Assembly (NCBI GenBank): GCA_041739665.1
Contig: JBGSNK010000015.1
Coordinates: 616-64,615 of the forward strand
From: Bdellovibrionales bacterium
GTDB taxonomy: Bacteria; Bdellovibrionota; Bdellovibrionia; Bdellovibrionales; JAGQZY01
Direction of reading: 5' to 3'
Length of the DNA stretch: 64,000 bases
The notes below the pieces were generated by a model. That model was not told the origin of the DNA. It was given only the letters and a program-made list of their open reading frames with translations, and did no database searches. Every line of letters begins with the position of its first letter. The stretch's first letter is position 1. The position numbers were made by a program, and so were the translations under genes. Of this stretch, positions 42,032-56,660 are shown piece by piece.

Positions 42032-42847
42032 ATGACAGTCTCTAAATTATTTTGGGCCTTTGTGATTATTAGTTGGCCGCTTCAAATTTTTTCACAAGAA
42101 ACCACTCGAAGCGGTAGCGGCAGTTTTTTTTCACCCCGCCAAACGCAAGAAACAGAAATGGATAGACTGCGCAAAAAAATTATGTGCGCATTTGAAGAAA
42201 ATAAACTTCCGAAAGACAATGAATCAAATCAACGCAAGCGGGCCGAGTACCTATCCCGACACTTAAGTGAAATCTTCTCGCGCCTTGAGCCGGACTGGAC
42301 AACCCTCGAACTGCAACACAGCCTGGCCCAGGCTGTTGCTGAAACGGGAAACCTTCGTCACGTGACTGAACAACCCTCTAAATACAGATCTTCTCGTTCA
42401 AAATACAAAGGGCGTGGCTTGATTCAAACAACTCACAAAGCTAATTATGCACAACTGGCAGGTTGCGCTCAGACCATCTCTAACAATCCCATTCCTCAGT
42501 CTATTTCGAGAGAAGCCTTGGCTCGCGCCCCTCGCCTAATGAGCAGCGAACTGGTTCGAAATCCAGATCAGGCTATGAGTGAGCGAACTCAGGGTGGACA
42601 ATTTCTAAATGCCGCAAGCTTGGTTTGTTATATGGTCAATACCTCAGAAAGACACAATCGCTTAAAAAAGGCCATGAGCTGCGCCAACCCGCCTTGTGTT
42701 CGAGAAGTGGGTGTCGCTGTGAACCGTGGCCCAGGTGCTCTGGGTAAAGGTCGCAAGCCGTTGGGCGATGCCGAAAGGGTTCGAGCTTTCTGCCGCATGA
42801 ACTCTTGCTTCGGAAACCAAGGTCGTTGCGCTACGGGAGGTCGTTAA
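42032..42847 (+). CDS. Secreted glycoside hydrolase family 19 (chitinase/endolysin-like muramidase) protein
   Basis: Signal peptide. LAQAVAETGNLRHVTEQ (two catalytic Glu context) and YKGRGLIQTTHKANY (GH19 GRGxIQxTxxxNY motif). Confidence 0.75.
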   Translation: MTVSKLFWAFVIISWPLQIFSQETTRSGSGSFFSPRQTQETEMDRLRKKIMCAFEENKLPKDNESNQRKRAEYLSRHLSEIFSRLEPDWTTLELQHSLAQAVAETGNLRHVTEQPSKYRSSRSKYKGRGLIQTTHKANYAQLAGCAQTISNNPIPQSISREALARAPRLMSSELVRNPDQAMSERTQGGQFLNAASLVCYMVNTSERHNRLKKAMSCANPPCVREVGVAVNRGPGALGKGRKPLGDAERVRAFCRMNSCFGNQGRCATGGR

Positions 42848-43380
42848 TGTTATCTGTTCTTAAAATTCTTTTTGTTTTTTTCTATACTCCATCTCTTTTG
42901 GCCATACCCAATTGGGTCAAGTTGACCGATAAAAAAACCCAGCATTGCAGCCAGCAAGCTCCTTGCACTCTCGTTCACGACAAAAACAAGCAGCGCTTTC
43001 AGGTCACTTTTGACCTCAAAAAAGAGGGCAGCAAGCTTTTTTTGACGACCGTTAATATTGTCGGTCCCGATAAAAAGAAAACTCAGTTTTCGGAACTTGA
43101 AAATTTCCAGGCCCATTACGACGATGAAGAGTTTAAACTTTTTGCAGTCGACCTCAATAACGACGGCCTCTTAGATTTAGCTTTAGAAGCCAGTCTTTCT
43201 AATAAAATGGGTCCCATGTACTACTATTGGGTTTATGACTCCAAAAAGAAAAATTTTGTTCAAACCACCGAACAAATCGAAGAGCTCAGCTTCAATTCAA
43301 AAGGCAAGCTCGAAGGTGCAGCCACCGGCGCTCTTTACACCATCAATAGGGATCTCAGGATTCAATCAAAAAGCCAATAA
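42847..43380 (+). CDS. Small secreted protein translationally coupled to the GH19 gene
   Basis: The ATG overlaps the GH19 stop (TAATG). Signal MLSVLKILFVFFYTPSLLA. DLNNDGLLDL (FG-GAP/VCBS-like turn). No family recognised. Confidence 0.6.
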   Translation: MLSVLKILFVFFYTPSLLAIPNWVKLTDKKTQHCSQQAPCTLVHDKNKQRFQVTFDLKKEGSKLFLTTVNIVGPDKKKTQFSELENFQAHYDDEEFKLFAVDLNNDGLLDLALEASLSNKMGPMYYYWVYDSKKKNFVQTTEQIEELSFNSKGKLEGAATGALYTINRDLRIQSKSQ

Positions 43381-43409
43381 AACGGGTCGACGGTATTGCT
43401 CATGTGCCT

Positions 43410-43534
43410 AACCCATCTCCTCGTCTCTATAAAATCAGACCTCCGAAAAGCGGATGCGTTCGCAGCCTTTAGGCTGCGATTTCGGTGAGGGCATGGAGCC
43501 CGTGTCTGATTTTGTAGAGACGAGGAGATGGGTT
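43410..43534 (+). repeat. Structured palindromic repeat, copy 1: 31-bp closing stem plus a 63-nt branched core
   Basis: Arms AACCCATCTCCTCGTCTCTATAAAATCAGAC / GTCTGATTTTGTAGAGACGAGGAGATGGGTT, with one T.G pair on the + strand. The core is shared with the element at 55906..56073. Lies between convergent gene ends. Confidence 0.8.
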
Positions 43535-43595
43535 GCGGATACAAGTGCAACAACGCAGAACGGGTCTTTTTTCCAAAGGAACGTGAGCCCTTTTT

Positions 43596-46500
43596 TTAGG
43601 GACTGAGCTTGAGCTTTCTGACGATGTGATTTTCAGTATCGCTGATATACAAATCACCATTGGCATCAAAATTAAGACCTGTCGGTCTTAACAAAGTAGC
43701 CGATGTTCCCGCCACACCTTCTTGACTAAAATCAAAGGGACTTCCCCCTGTTGCAATAGCTTCGATGCGCCCGGCGACGGTGCTCACCACACCCGTTGTC
43801 GTGTTGAAACATCTAACGTTATGACGGGCTCTTTGGGCGTAACAAAGACGACTCCCATAAAAGGCCAAACCTGTTGGTTGGTTACAGCGAGCTGAAGACA
43901 CTAAGACATTCTCGGAGTCACTGCCCGAAGTTCCACCTAGGCAGCCTACAGTCGAGACTTGATTGGGATTCACTGTAACGGTTCCTATCGACACAGGGCT
44001 TGCCGTTTTATTCCAATAGTAAATACGATGATTTCCCATATCGGAAATAAAAAGATTACCTAACCCATCGATTGCAATATCTCGAGGTTGATTGAAGTAA
44101 GCTGAACCCTCTGGAAAACTCAATGGAACTGGAGCTGGCCCGGGGAATGCCGTCGCACTAGTCGTTTCACATGTGCCCAGAACAGATGACAATGTTCCAC
44201 TGGCGTCCACATATTTGATACAATGATTAAGACTGTCGACAATATACATTTCAGGGTCGCCATTGTTATTCACAAACTTAACTGAGTTCGGATATCTTAA
44301 GCGAGACGCTAAGGCGGGTCCACTGGCATCGTGCCCTGCTCCCGAGACCCAATCACCAGCAACTGTTGAGATACGATTGTTTTGTATAAATTGTCCAAGA
44401 TAATTTTTATTAGAACCACTACGATTCCAAATGCGCACATTATGTCCATAGGGATTCAATTGAGCCAAACTGCCATCTTCCCAAATATCAAAACCGTTTG
44501 TAATCGCATTAGTCGCATTCCACGTGGATTGAAGGGGGGCATTATTAGGGAAATCATTATCTAAAGTCGGAGAGGCTGCTGGTCCTGAGCCCACCACGGA
44601 TTTCATACGTCCATATTTGTCCACAGAGCGTATTCGCTGATTGTTTTGATCGGCAATAAATAGTATCTGATTGGTGTTATCAAAAACTAAGCCTGATGGG
44701 AAATCCATAAGATGCTGGCTCACAGGGAGTTCGATGTCTCCTAAGAAACCACTCTTTCCATCTCCGCTGCCTAAGAAGTCACTCACCGCTCCCGTGATAA
44801 TGTTGATATCACGTAATCTATAATTGGAGTAATCCGAAACCACTAAACGATTGGAATTGTTTCGATCTATAGTAATGCCGCTGGGTTGATTGAATCTTGT
44901 CAAAGCAATTCCGGCATTCGAGCCGTTGTAACCGTTTGTCGCCTGGTTGATTCGCCCCAAAAGACCATTATTAATGGTGTTGCCATCAATTGTGATGGGG
45001 GCCGGAGAGTTGTTTGCTAGAACTATGCTCCCTCTGTGTAGGTCCGTAATGAAAATTGTATCCAAGTCCTTCACCCAAATACTTGAGGGTTGTGACACGG
45101 GTGTGGCCAAGGGGTTACCCGACAGAGGGGTAGCTCCGTTGGCTCCATTGCCGATGATCGTTGCCATCATTCCAGGAGCAACAATGATCTCGCTCGGGTT
45201 TCCAGACCAAAAGGTAATCGGATTTAGAGTGGTATTGATAAAGCGAACAAGGCGACGGCTGTACAAAGTGATATAAATTCCATTGGCATCCACAAAAATG
45301 CCCATGGGTTGACCTGTACCACCAGATGTGGGTGCCACATTGTTACCGGTGTTGTTATCAGAACCTGTTCCCGCAATAGTGTAAGCCAAGTCGCTGGCCA
45401 AATCCCACCGCTTGACACGATGGTCATTCAAACATGTGACATATAAATTGCCAGAATAATGGAACAATTCACGAGGACGACGGCAACGCTCTAAGAAAGC
45501 AGGCTGTCCGTTAATGTGGCTCGTTCCCCCACCCATTCCAACGAAGATAACACCGGACGCATCGACATATTTAATTAAATCACCTAAATACTCCGTGATA
45601 TAAAGTCGATCAAAAGCGTCGTCGTACCAAAGACCTCTAGGTTCATATAAGGGTGAGGCCAGAGCCGCAATACCAGCACTTCCACTTTCTGCAGAACCGG
45701 TCCCAGCAATCACCTGAATTGTTCCAGGCTGAATCGTCACGCCCACACGGGTCACGGCCGAAGCAGTGTTGTTCCAATACCAAACCACGTGATTGTCCAG
45801 ATCTGAAATAAAGAAGTTACCTAAAGCATCTTGGACATGGGACCCTGGGCGAAAGCGCAATGGATAATTCACATCAGTGGGTGAAAAACCACTTCCTTTA
45901 TTCGCGCTTCCAGCAAATGTGCAAATTTGACCTGTTTGCAACTCGTTACATTTCTGAGGAAACCAATTGACCTCTCCACTCCAACTAAAAGATGTAGACT
46001 TGGTTCCGTCGCTGACTTCAACCGTCACAAGATTGGTACCTACAATATCTGCATGTCCCGTTAAATACCCGGTCGCCCCAAGCCCACTTAGATGAGGGGA
46101 TGAAGCACCATTGAGTTTCCATTGAAAAGTTAAAGTGTCATTATTGGGATCCGTCGCTAAAGCCATAAAGCTCACAGTGGAGTCCACAGAAACTTTTGGA
46201 ATTCCGGAGGTCAAACTGCTTAAAACAGGAGGGCCGTTGACTTTAACGATCCACGCATTTTCAATGGTGGCCTTTTCATCTGACAAGGTAACGACCAGAT
46301 TGTGTTCGCCAATAAGAGCTTCAGTTGCTGTGAATGTAAACTGGTTCACCGCTGCTATGGCCTGACCGTCGAGCTTCCATGAATAATTAACTGTTCTGGG
46401 AAAGACGGCAACACCGGTAATAAAAAAATCAACCGATTGACCAATCTCGACAATGATCTCGCCCGCGTCTGGTAAACGACTGGTGATCTTTAACTCGGTG

Positions 46501-46616
46501 GCATTGGTGGGTCCACCGCCACCAGATAATATATCTAAAGAGGATCCCCCCTCTTGCTTACAGGAAGTTAGAAAAAGGAATATCAATAGGGGAATATAGA
46601 GCTTTGATATATTCAT
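43596..46616 (-). CDS. Large lipoprotein: N-terminal Ig-like domains plus multiple NHL-repeat beta-propeller blades (paralog 1)
   Basis: Lipobox ..LFLTSC. Two ~90-aa Ig/PKD-like units. Recurrent NHL motifs (e.g. FNQPRDIAIDGLGNLFISDMGNHRIYYW, LLRPTGLNFDANGDLYISDTENHIVRKL). Confidence 0.8.
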   Translation of the reverse strand: MNISKLYIPLLIFLFLTSCKQEGGSSLDILSGGGGPTNATELKITSRLPDAGEIIVEIGQSVDFFITGVAVFPRTVNYSWKLDGQAIAAVNQFTFTATEALIGEHNLVVTLSDEKATIENAWIVKVNGPPVLSSLTSGIPKVSVDSTVSFMALATDPNNDTLTFQWKLNGASSPHLSGLGATGYLTGHADIVGTNLVTVEVSDGTKSTSFSWSGEVNWFPQKCNELQTGQICTFAGSANKGSGFSPTDVNYPLRFRPGSHVQDALGNFFISDLDNHVVWYWNNTASAVTRVGVTIQPGTIQVIAGTGSAESGSAGIAALASPLYEPRGLWYDDAFDRLYITEYLGDLIKYVDASGVIFVGMGGGTSHINGQPAFLERCRRPRELFHYSGNLYVTCLNDHRVKRWDLASDLAYTIAGTGSDNNTGNNVAPTSGGTGQPMGIFVDANGIYITLYSRRLVRFINTTLNPITFWSGNPSEIIVAPGMMATIIGNGANGATPLSGNPLATPVSQPSSIWVKDLDTIFITDLHRGSIVLANNSPAPITIDGNTINNGLLGRINQATNGYNGSNAGIALTRFNQPSGITIDRNNSNRLVVSDYSNYRLRDINIITGAVSDFLGSGDGKSGFLGDIELPVSQHLMDFPSGLVFDNTNQILFIADQNNQRIRSVDKYGRMKSVVGSGPAASPTLDNDFPNNAPLQSTWNATNAITNGFDIWEDGSLAQLNPYGHNVRIWNRSGSNKNYLGQFIQNNRISTVAGDWVSGAGHDASGPALASRLRYPNSVKFVNNNGDPEMYIVDSLNHCIKYVDASGTLSSVLGTCETTSATAFPGPAPVPLSFPEGSAYFNQPRDIAIDGLGNLFISDMGNHRIYYWNKTASPVSIGTVTVNPNQVSTVGCLGGTSGSDSENVLVSSARCNQPTGLAFYGSRLCYAQRARHNVRCFNTTTGVVSTVAGRIEAIATGGSPFDFSQEGVAGTSATLLRPTGLNFDANGDLYISDTENHIVRKLKLSP

Positions 46617-55260: not shown

Positions 55261-55276
55261 CAAAAAAGGAGTGTTT

Positions 55277-55720
55277 ATGTTTGCAAAACCTCACTGGAAT
55301 ATTGCCGTGGTCGTGGACAGAAGCCAAGCTCGCTTTATCAACCGCAAGCCATTCAATATATTTGCCACTTTTGTCAACGAATTGGGACGCACTAAAAATC
55401 GCGAGTTCACAGATGACAAGCCTGGACTCAGTCGTGCTAAGGGAGGCGGCCCCTCGAGCACTCACAGTTTAGGAAGTGAAAAAGACCCCACCGCTGAAGC
55501 CGATAAACAGTTTGTGCATGCTCTTTGTGATCGCATTGACAAACTTTGCTACGAAACAAATTTACAACAGTTTTTAATTGTGGCTGAACCTAAAATGAAA
55601 GGCTTGATTCGAGCCAAGCTTAGTTCACAATCCTTAGATAAAAGCTTGTGGATGGACAAAGACCTAGCACACTTTAACAAGCACGAACTCAAAGAAAAAC
55701 TCAAAAACTATGAAGCTTAA
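55277..55720 (+). CDS. Host_attach family protein (protein required for attachment to host cells; eRF1/Pelota-like fold reported)
   Basis: ..AVVVDRSQARFI.., DDKPGLSR, ..FLIVAEPKMKGLIRAKL..DKDL.. follow the family pattern (VVADGxKARxF / DxPGR / LVLVAPPxxLGxLR / KDL). The ATG at 55277 follows AAAGGA. Confidence 0.6.
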   Translation: MFAKPHWNIAVVVDRSQARFINRKPFNIFATFVNELGRTKNREFTDDKPGLSRAKGGGPSSTHSLGSEKDPTAEADKQFVHALCDRIDKLCYETNLQQFLIVAEPKMKGLIRAKLSSQSLDKSLWMDKDLAHFNKHELKEKLKNYEA

Positions 55721-55905
55721 TTAATTATTGTACCTAGCAAAGGGCTTGTACGATTTCAGAGAAATTTTACAAGCCCTTTACAATTATAGCCGCTTGCCTA
55801 TTAAACCCACCCTTAGTTTATTTTTTTTGACGACATAATTATAGGGCGGGTGGGCAGTGATTTTTTATACTCAAAGCATCATGTTGCAGTTCTTGTGCAA
55901 GAGAA

Positions 55906-56073
55906 TTTCCTAGATTCATTTCTCTATAAAATCAGACCTCGGACAAGTCGTGAAGCGTTCGCGGGCAAAGCCCGCGATGTCGGTGAGGGGCCACAGCATG
56001 CTTAGCTGTACAGCTAAGGCATGTGGCCGTCAGGAGCCCGTGTCTGTTTTTATAGAGAAATGAATCTAGGAAA
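55906..56073 (+). repeat. Structured palindromic repeat, copy 2: 32-bp closing stem plus a 104-nt core carrying an extra hairpin
   Basis: Arms TTTCCTAGATTCATTTCTCTATAAAATCAGAC / GTCTGTTTTTATAGAGAAATGAATCTAGGAAA with one mismatch. The core is collinear with copy 1 except for a ~40-nt hairpin inserted at 55989-56028. Lies between convergent gene ends. Confidence 0.8.
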
Positions 56074-56105
56074 CGGTCTTATATGCAACAAGGCTCACAA
56101 ATTTA

Positions 56106-56660
56106 TTACATTTGTTTGAAGAATTCTAAAGCTCCAGGGGAAGCCCAGTCTTGAATTCCGATAATCTTTTTTTGCAGGCGACCTTCTTGATCAAAGATAA
56201 AGCCTTCTGGCAAACGGTCCACTGCAAAGGCTTGGCTAAGCTCTTTCCCCTTGTCCATTGTTAAAATCAGGTTGGGACGATAGCCATCAAAAGCTTTGAC
56301 GAAGTCGCGAACCTCTTGCTCTTCATAGTCGTGGGAAATTGCCACCAATCTTATTTTATCTGGGAAGGCGTCCATGAGTTTCACAAAAGAGGGAAATTCC
56401 TCTACGCAGGGCTCACACCATGTGGCCCAAAAACTGAGAATAAGGACTTTGCCTTTGAAGCTGCTCAAGGCAATAGTCTCGCCTGTAAGAGTGGTGAGCT
56501 TAATCTCTTCACCCTTATAAATACCGGCATTTTCAAGGTCGTCTAGGACTTTGTAGGACTTCGGCACCTTTTGGGATTCCCAATTGCTGTTTTGCCAATA
56601 GAGAGAGCCCACTCCAATGGCCACACCTAACACAATAAATAAGCCAATCACTTTTTTCAT
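56106..56660 (-). CDS. TlpA/ResA-like periplasmic thiol:disulfide oxidoreductase
   Basis: N-terminal anchor and a thioredoxin fold with WATWCEPC. Confidence 0.8.
   Translation of the reverse strand: MKKVIGLFIVLGVAIGVGSLYWQNSNWESQKVPKSYKVLDDLENAGIYKGEEIKLTTLTGETIALSSFKGKVLILSFWATWCEPCVEEFPSFVKLMDAFPDKIRLVAISHDYEEQEVRDFVKAFDGYRPNLILTMDKGKELSQAFAVDRLPEGFIFDQEGRLQKKIIGIQDWASPGALEFFKQM

Follow-up and report, generated by a model that had tools for sequence, protein, structure and literature searches.

A stretch of 64,000 nucleotides from a Bdellovibrionales genome (contig JBGSNK010000015.1), hereafter called the window, contains two long DNA palindromes that have the inner stem and a branched core in common, and outer stems that are unrelated in sequence and nevertheless self-complementary in each copy. 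The question raised by this locus is what keeps the arms of such hairpins complementary, and what their conserved tip is for. The initial annotation, made from the sequence alone, took the compensatory differences between the two copies to mean that structure is under selection, and left three options: a transcribed palindrome resembling enterobacterial repetitive intergenic consensus (ERIC) or repetitive extragenic palindromic (REP) sequences, acting as a bidirectional terminator or mRNA stabiliser; a non-autonomous mobile element; or an unclassified structured RNA. Among these options was the correct type of element, a palindromic repeat like REP or ERIC and probably mobile; the case for RNA selection drawn from the stems did not survive. 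The explanation favoured here, with somewhat more trust than doubt, is that the hairpins form a family of mobile DNA palindromes, whose arms are symmetrised by DNA copying and whose tip is a functional module, rather than a classical structured RNA gene.

Genomes, contigs and loci are designated below by our own handles, G000 being the window's own genome (2.64 Mb, 109 contigs, 43.6% G+C). The parts of the two hairpins are, in window coordinates:

43387..43559, + strand: copy 1, entire hairpin with the imperfect outer extension of its stem (minimum free energy fold); equal to G000:C22:44002-44174 (offset 615)
43410..43440, + strand: copy 1, 5' arm of the closing stem P1 (blastn self-match, fold)
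43441..43503, + strand: copy 1, core, a three-way junction of 63 nt (fold, covariance model alignments)
43504..43534, + strand: copy 1, 3' arm of P1 (blastn self-match, fold)
55892..56092, + strand: copy 2, whole hairpin (fold)

The stem, the 63-nt core and the single T.G position which the initial annotation had described for copy 1 were all recovered at these places by blastn and folding; the 31-nt arms pair at all remaining positions (blastn self-match 96.8% over 31 nt). The minimum free energy of copy 1 is -100.5 kcal/mol, compared with -56.3 +/- 4.2 in dinucleotide shuffles (z = -10.4), and 0 of 200 shuffles were as stable; the fold of the copy 2 hairpin gives z = -10.2. Within the core of copy 1, P2 is formed by 43443-48 with 43480-85, the P3 hairpin covers 43460-79 and the P4 hairpin, GGGC-ATGGA-GCCC, covers 43489-43501; the unpaired joints are CT (J1/2, 43441-42), AGCGGATGCGT (J2/3, 43449-59), TGA (43486-88) and GT (43502-03). 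Copy 2, which had been placed at 55906-56073 as sharing the inner stem and core with copy 1, does so: the cores are alike (81% over 68 nt and 92% over 26 nt), and the inner 17 nt of the 5' arm of copy 1, TCTCTATAAAATCAGAC, recur in copy 2 and in a copy in the genome G011, while the distal 14 nt, AACCCATCTCCTCG, are unique to copy 1. The reported differences between the copies were also as described. P3 is CGCAGCC/GGCTGCG in copy 1 and CGCGGGC/GCCCGCG in copy 2, P2 is CCGAAA/TTTCGG in the first and GGACA/TGTCG in the second, and the distal stems are unrelated in sequence, each being self-complementary.

Further copies in G000 were first found by blast, a regular expression and nhmmer. The covariance model (CM) scan proposed in the initial annotation was made with two models, R1, built from nine ungapped copies and a hand-drawn structure, and R2, rebuilt from the CM alignment of 36 copies. 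They detected 44-47 copies in G000, about 46, so the hairpins of the window belong to a dispersed family and are not a pair of unrelated terminators. Copy 1 matches R2 at 43422-43522 (84.4 bits, E = 1.7e-17) and copy 2 at 55919-56060 (53.2 bits, E = 5.8e-10), and all matches in G000 lie in one model orientation, save a single weak antisense echo. The members are palindromic intergenic repeats of 110-245 bp, in which P1, a long Watson-Crick stem of ~25-50 bp and variable sequence, closes a core of roughly 60-65 nt, an asymmetric three-way junction made of P2, P3, P4 and conserved unpaired bases. The joint between P1 and P2 has 1-2 nt and ends in TC, P2 has 6 bp, and a one-sided internal loop of 11-12 nt, AGC-n-G(G/T)GA-n-GCG, separates P2 from P3. 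The P3 hairpin reaches 8-10 bp, with a loop of mostly 3 nt, and is almost missing in some lineages; in most copies its loop is a GNA triloop closed by C-G, a stable mini-hairpin motif of DNA. On the side from P3 to P4 a joint of 2-4 nt ends in A, P4 is a hairpin of 4-5 bp with the loop A-n-GGA, and 1-2 bases follow before P1 resumes. Conserved to at least 90% across lineages are TC before P2, AGC, GA.GCG, A before P4, and A.G of the P4 loop.

Arm sequences are common to copies only within subfamilies. Several of these exist, one of them with ~12 copies at 92-97% identity; the window copies form a rare subfamily, with one more, decayed copy in G000 (C71) and the relative in G011, which has the same inner stem and a third, unrelated distal stem, perfectly self-complementary. 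The family clusters or nests. Members of different subfamilies lie within 100-300 nt of each other, often in opposite orientation (G000:C104:15224-15517, C70:36075-36483, C107:26144-26541, C28:2011-4274), three copies share one short contig of 4.3 kb, and the ends of many contigs fall within a copy.

When 55 distinct copies from many lineages were aligned, all 38 modelled pairs had changed on both sides (38/38), and 94.6% of the cells were paired, compared with 55.6% in shuffles and at most 49% when the partners were slid. Both further copies and covariation, on which the initial annotation had made its reading depend, are therefore present. It is not supported, however, that the compensatory changes of the long stem are evidence of RNA-level selection. 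A single transition in a Watson-Crick pair produces G-U on one strand and A-C on the other, so selection on an RNA should enrich G-U. Aligning each 5' arm to the reverse complement of its 3' arm gave mismatches of G-U type and A-C type in a ratio of 24:30 in G000; for 77 copies of five further genomes the ratio is 81:60, and the combined counts are 105 versus 90. In the CM-fitted alignments, which are biased toward G-U, its share is 2.5% of P1 pairs and 0.9% of core pairs.

The second line of evidence comes from changes that involve both arms at once. In orthologous copies at one locus (locus 1), a 2-bp insertion in the 5' arm has its counterpart in the 3' arm, and a mirrored 1-bp indel is present at the rplL locus. 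A 12-copy subfamily has outer flanks that are normally asymmetric (A on the left, B on the right); in its member C70:36075 flank B has been replaced by inverted A, the palindrome extending to +/-94 as compared with +/-61 in its siblings, and in C101:4326 the centre is inverted, so that each outer arm lies on the opposite side of the core. In the young 12-copy subfamily, a C.A mismatch of the founder has been repaired independently in 4 of the 12 copies, three times via the 5' arm and once via the 3' arm, and one private substitution is mirrored. The scarcity of G-U, the mirrored indels, the overwriting of flanks, the inversion of the core and the repair from either arm together point to arm-to-arm copying at the DNA level. 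We infer from these comparisons that the arms are probably kept complementary mainly by templated DNA copying of one arm from the other.

Such a process has a known counterpart. In quasipalindrome correction, an intramolecular template switching, an imperfect inverted repeat has one of its arms rewritten during replication with the other as template; it was reportedly described by Ripley and studied by the Lovett laboratory in E. coli. The likeness covers the copying of one arm onto the other, the resulting complementarity, the mirrored indels and the outward extension, all as seen in this family. The difference is that it is a mutational mechanism and not a family of elements; it accounts for the arms, and neither for the conserved tip nor for the amplification. 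For the discovery of RNA motifs this calls for caution, as a strong covariation signal (38/38) is in this case poor evidence of a functional RNA.

What the arms and the tip each experience can be separated by comparing the same site in different genomes. At locus 1, G077 was compared with three genomes of a related genus with complete genomes, which is probably Bdellovibrio. The flanking coding DNA is 77-92% identical, the adjacent non-coding DNA 37-40% (60 + 9 columns), the P1 arms 79% and the core 78-85%. Core differences are either compensated changes in P2 or fall in the variable P3, and the junction bases and P4 are identical; at paired positions P1 has five double substitutions and the mirrored indel, P2 has two double substitutions, and there are no one-sided changes. 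The intergenic region between rplL and rpoB was compared in two genomes (86.5% identical over 2.7 kb), where ~12 of 33 stem positions differ (~37%), all of them mirrored, and the core has one difference. A third locus, where the flanks share 89.5% identity, has fully paired stems that have diverged by at least 50% around a core of ~97% identity; at this locus and at rplL-rpoB the whole core is 97-98% identical. Thus, across the three loci the stems have diverged by 21-50% with pairing kept, and the arms diverge at about the rate of neighbouring non-coding DNA while retaining complementarity. Concerted evolution does not explain the conservation of the tip, because cores differ among copies of one genome. 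A purely selfish remnant passed on vertically would be expected to decay as fast as the DNA around it; the tip is spared such decay, and so it does something for the host or for the element. As judged from the aligned sequences, the branched tip is under purifying selection. The claim that structure is under selection therefore holds for the core, which is constrained at orthologous loci, and the compensation of the long stem is no proof of selection on RNA. The value of such same-site comparison is that it distinguishes DNA-mechanical "compensatory" change in the arms from purifying selection on the tip.

The distribution of the family is patchy. Within the taxonomic family, 22 of the other 25 genomes carry the element, and none of the 6 genera lacks it. 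Genomes of the genus carry 0, 0, 0, 1, 2, 2, 6, 25, 27, 29, 40, 47, and 81 or more copies. In the order it was found in 46 of 121 sampled genomes (6 of 13 families), and among the genomes sampled elsewhere in the phylum just 4 contain it. The related genus, with many complete genomes of 3-4 Mb, has 1-7 copies in each. When one genome per species (596 Gb) was scanned for an exact pattern, many chance matches came from G+C-rich genomes, and the loci that passed the CM belong only to metagenome-assembled genomes of Bdellovibrionales, Bdellovibrionia and Pseudobdellovibrionaceae; among viral contigs there was one pattern match, rejected by the CM. The Rfam search recommended in the initial annotation returned no family for the element, self-cleaving ribozymes, Y RNA, 6S and SRP included: with Rfam 15 at gathering thresholds the window contains only a tRNA, and four other copies searched at E up to 10 gave only chance matches far under threshold. 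A literature search found no description of such repeats in Bdellovibrio. The hairpins are therefore apparently a repeat family new to description and confined to Bdellovibrionota. Presence also varies at orthologous sites. At locus 1, six genomes of the related genus have the element and more distant species have only a plain T-run terminator, and at a second site five genomes have it and G107 has a 21-nt junction instead. The family has been amplified and lost within genomes, and it is missing from an orthologous site in more distant species.

In the proposed mechanism, one arm would be copied from the other by intra-palindrome template switching (quasipalindrome correction) or by hairpin-primed synthesis. 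This would produce "compensatory" changes and mirrored indels automatically, without selection, so that the stems could drift at the neutral rate, and it could push palindromy outward into the flanking DNA. Outward spread would explain why the distal 14-17 bp are wholly different in copy 1, copy 2 and the G011 copy; it is confirmed only by C70:36075 and, weakly, by one filled/empty pair of sites. The conserved tip would be the functional module, probably a recognition site for a trans-acting protein on the extruded or single-stranded hairpin or on the transcript. As a secondary role, the hairpin, when transcribed, would probably also end or process neighbouring mRNAs. A bolder and rather doubtful extension is that the cap serves as the handle of a hairpin DNA/RNA system, either for an enzyme that nicks at the cap and re-synthesises an arm or for a cap-binding factor domesticated by the host. 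If the nicking version is correct, then a mobile element copies itself in a self-symmetrising way, only the cap and one arm being inherited; if the host version is correct, then the hairpins are modules of transcript ends or of chromosome structure. Either version would describe a new kind of element, with conserved apex and free arms, and not a variant of REP or of miniature inverted-repeat transposable elements (MITEs). REP, bacterial interspersed mosaic elements (BIME), ERIC and REPINs (hairpins of paired REP sequences) are among the least understood parts of bacterial genomes, and the family reverses their layout, the apex being conserved and the arms free. The related genus holds it at one to a few conserved loci, including rplL-rpoB, which would make the function of the tip testable if cultured strains carry the element.

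At the filled/empty pair, CTATGG at the empty site corresponds to CCATAG...CAATGG at the filled one, and the flanks are strongly diverged. Inverted duplication of the target was considered as a general source of distal stems; it is suggestive at that pair, the flanks of which are too diverged for certainty.

Several points weigh against the mobile-palindrome explanation. The tip is kept at vertically inherited loci in genomes with 1-3 copies, which is hard to reconcile with a purely selfish element and argues for a role at the level of the host. No mobilising enzyme was found; the sole gene in G000 resembling a REP-associated tyrosine transposase (RAYT) is flanked by a different REP of 25 nt. 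Transposition is deduced from copy-number variation and patchy presence; the one available empty site has flanks 74-86% identical, and the family searches gave neither copies with a gene between the halves nor orphan halves. The 8-nt direct repeat around copy 1, a possible target-site duplication, is not a general feature of the family, and no consistent repeat was found to flank the 12 near-identical copies that were examined. The repeat itself exists at both sites:

43381..43388, + strand: copy 1, left 8-nt direct repeat AACGGGTC (read from the sequence)
43559..43566, + strand: copy 1, right 8-nt direct repeat AACGGGTC, followed by TTTTTT (read from the sequence)

The 8-mer occurs 3 times in the window, with 1.2 occurrences expected, which makes it weak evidence for a target-site duplication; its left copy is similar to the outer end (A-run/GGGTC) found in the "type 1" subfamily.

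A further point concerns the position of the elements relative to genes, on which the best-surviving rival also depends. Both window copies occupy convergent 3' gaps, as the initial annotation had noticed for copy 1; the flanking open reading frames (ORFs) are:

42805..43380, + strand: ORF of 191 aa upstream of copy 1, convergent, its stop 6 nt ahead of the hairpin
43596..46616, - strand: ORF of 1006 aa downstream of copy 1, convergent
55271..55720, + strand: ORF of 149 aa upstream of copy 2
56106..56660, - strand: ORF of 184 aa downstream of copy 2, convergent, thioredoxin-fold-like

In a crude, ORF-based gene map of 116 copies, 42 copies have convergent neighbours and 10 divergent ones; in tandem pairs the core runs antisense to the genes 39 times and in sense 16-18 times. 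By these counts, the family is concentrated at 3' ends and avoids promoter regions. The antisense bias in tandem pairs is ~2.3:1 (binomial p ~0.007, for copies that are not independent), and all three conserved loci lie between co-directional genes in the majority orientation. Core orientation shows no bias with respect to local GC skew (17 versus 21), so the tandem bias is not an effect of the replication strand. No neighbour gene is conserved; the neighbours include groEL, rplL, a protease and an oligopeptidase. The orientation bias could indicate an RNA-level or transcription-coupled role, and in this respect it counts against an explanation based on DNA copying.

The rival that survives best, which we regard as possible and would adopt only tentatively, is a genuine structured non-coding RNA: a double-stranded stem, likely a substrate of RNase III, with a conserved three-way cap that either binds a protein or has a trans-acting role, selection keeping the RNA fold and the spread being a by-product. 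It gains from the covariation of all four helices, from unpaired junction bases conserved to at least 90% across families, and from the three orthologous loci, where the tip is kept while the flanking non-coding DNA has diverged. The preference of tandem copies for one orientation toward the gene reading in, and the common relative orientation at the three conserved loci, fit as well; one of these lies between rplL and rpoB, and in E. coli an attenuator and an RNase III site are located at the corresponding position. However, G-U is no commoner than A-C on either strand and makes up 0.9-2.5% of pairs, when selected RNA helices usually have far more, and mirrored indels and the overwriting of flanks are events of DNA. 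The core may be flipped relative to the outer arms, both orientations occur frequently, and 0 to 81 copies among congeners is unlike an RNA gene; no Rfam match was obtained even at E up to 10, and a promoter of its own is not evident. More specific RNA candidates failed individually. Hammerhead and twister ribozyme cores, compared by eye, misfit the junction lengths. A small ORF was rejected because the ATG of GGATGCG is missing in the many copies with GGACGCG, and CsrA-type GGA sites because many lineages have GTGA in place of the J2/3 GGA and some copies have ACGA or AGAA as their P4 loop. When the stems were examined as guides, only family members and chance 14-mers were matched.

It is quite unlikely that the element is a REPIN of unusual type, with its centre conserved, and is moved by the genome's RAYT (a Y1/HUH enzyme) acting on the single-stranded hairpin, although REPINs and the family have many traits in common. 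REPINs are likewise short non-coding extragenic palindromes that form long hairpins as single-stranded DNA or RNA, exist in tens to hundreds of copies, cluster, vary in number between relatives and are accompanied by a RAYT-like gene in high-copy genomes; they also show compensatory changes along the hairpin (Bertels and Rainey, 2011, PMC3116915). In a Pfam Y1_Tnp search, a weakly matching RAYT-like gene was found in 6 of 6 congeners with at least 25 copies and in 1 of 7 with 6 or fewer, genomes that are not phylogenetically independent. The gene of G000 (G000:C15:29539-30183, 215 aa) lies just downstream of groEL, and its product scores above the cut-off of Pfam Y1_Tnp; its match to NCBIfam REP_Tyr_transpos (E = 5e-16) stays below the cut-off. 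At one locus of the related genus, REP-like GTAG...GGCACCTTTTGG units adjoin the element. Nevertheless, the RAYT of G000 is flanked not by the hairpin element but by perfect inverted copies of another 25-mer, GGTACCTGGTTCTTTTTGCAGAAGC (G000:C15:29421-30270), which is present in at least 40 copies in G000, sometimes as inverted doublets (e.g., C6:47-71 with 131-155). No CM match lies on contig C15, GGTACCTGGTTCTTTTTGCAGAAGC does not match the ends of the hairpin element in blastn-short, and the RAYT genes of relatives are flanked by their own, different short REPs. By these sequence matches, G000 carries an ordinary REP-RAYT system alongside the hairpin family. The architecture is inverted, too: REPINs are conserved at their ends (REP 16-mers) and vary in the spacer, whereas here a 60-nt centre is conserved, the arms vary, and neither a GTAG nor a CGTC tag is found at the element ends. 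The element therefore consists neither of two inverted copies of the RAYT-flanking REP nor of conserved ends around a variable spacer. Y1 elements that use the lagging-strand template show an orientation bias relative to GC skew, and none was found here.

Other classes of mobile or repeated DNA can be compared in the same way. ERIC sequences, or intergenic repeat units, of Enterobacteriaceae and Vibrio are imperfect palindromes of ~127 bp in transcribed intergenic regions, numbering from none to hundreds per species, with optional insertions at fixed internal points, reported compensatory substitutions and orientation-dependent effects on flanking mRNAs. They have no sequence relation to the hairpin family and belong to a different phylum; ERIC copies have their arm sequence in common and no conserved branched apex, whereas the arms of the hairpin family are specific to a lineage or a copy. 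The family resembles MITEs (Correia/NEMIS, Nezha, RUP) in its non-autonomous size, intergenic position and near-identical subfamilies, and in that contigs break at copies. In contrast to MITEs, neither a consistent target-site duplication nor a parent insertion sequence with matching ends was found; the terminal inverted repeats of the family are not conserved across subfamilies, the centre being the conserved part. The conserved R''/R' sites (RYYYAAC ... GTTRRRY) expected at the hairpin base of an integron attC site are absent, the bases of the stems being variable and the centre conserved.

That the hairpins are immobile long intrinsic (bidirectional) terminators or mRNA-stabilising hairpins of common ancestry, with no special role of the tip, is very unlikely: in favour are the convergent 3' gaps of both window copies, the 81 of 116 copies that directly follow a gene's 3' end in one orientation, one subfamily with A-run/T-run flanks and the plain T-run terminator of relatives at one orthologous site, but a T-rich tail (at least 6 T in 14 nt at the stem edge) was found in only 7 of 40 copies against a background of 25%, the full hairpins were not flagged by a consensus terminator scan, a conserved branched tip of 60 nt is needless for termination, and elements that are clustered, nested and present in 0 to 81 or more copies among congeners do not look immobile. 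In copy 1 the scan recognised the small P4 hairpin alone, and in copy 2 it recognised nothing; the TTTTTT of copy 1 lies ~25 nt past the perfect stem, and a U-tract directly after the G+C-rich hairpin, as in an intrinsic terminator, is no general trait of the family. Since A-run/T-run edges occur in one subfamily only, the bidirectional termination proposed in the initial annotation is at best a property of that subfamily and does not extend to the remaining family. Insertion of the core into the loop of an older terminator was also rejected, as at the orthologous site carriers keep a hairpin where relatives have their terminator, with the whole palindrome directly next to it, outside the loop, and as the empty sites are free of any stem sequence.

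Some minor observations concern the surroundings and the fine structure of the elements. At locus L320 of the related genus (G122:C1, ~3916800-3916930), two tandem REP-like units, (C)GTAGAC...AAAAAA...GGCACCTTTT(C/G)G, adjoin the hairpin element, and at the orthologous site of G107 a single unit stands without the hairpin element. RAYT genes of G008 and G012 are also bordered by the GGCACCTTTTGG motif. Directly upstream of the relative of copy 1 in G011:C84 (L111), a long T-rich tract with irregular TTTTTAT/TTTTTGT repeats covers 1380-1470, and the opposite strand carries a second family member at a distance of 400 nt. In many lineages the joint before P2 reads GACCTCC, resembling an anti-Shine-Dalgarno sequence (window 43438-43444), and is complementary to AGGAG or TGGAG in the loop and stem of P4 (window 43493-43498). 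The two could form a tertiary contact or an alternative pairing; both are nearly invariant, which leaves no covariation by which to judge.

The last observation is a smaller palindrome nested in copy 2:

55989..56028, no strand assigned: 40-nt palindrome GGCCACAGCATGCTTAGCTGTACAGCTAAGGCATGTGGCC in the P4 loop of copy 2 (sequence matches)

It belongs to a type of ~40-42 nt (GGCCACRGCATG...CATGTGGCC, with the centre GCTGTACAGC) with at least 6 occurrences in G000, which besides the window site are G000:C71:10808-10849, C28:2065-2106, C21:5171-5212, C33:1602-1637 and C103:10153-10198. Four occurrences are nested in hairpin-family members, one within the P4 loop of copy 2 and three at J2/3 of other copies, always between G and C; the small palindrome is also found free-standing. 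The small palindrome looks like a second mini-element with a preference for unpaired parts of the larger hairpin, or like an optional expansion hairpin.

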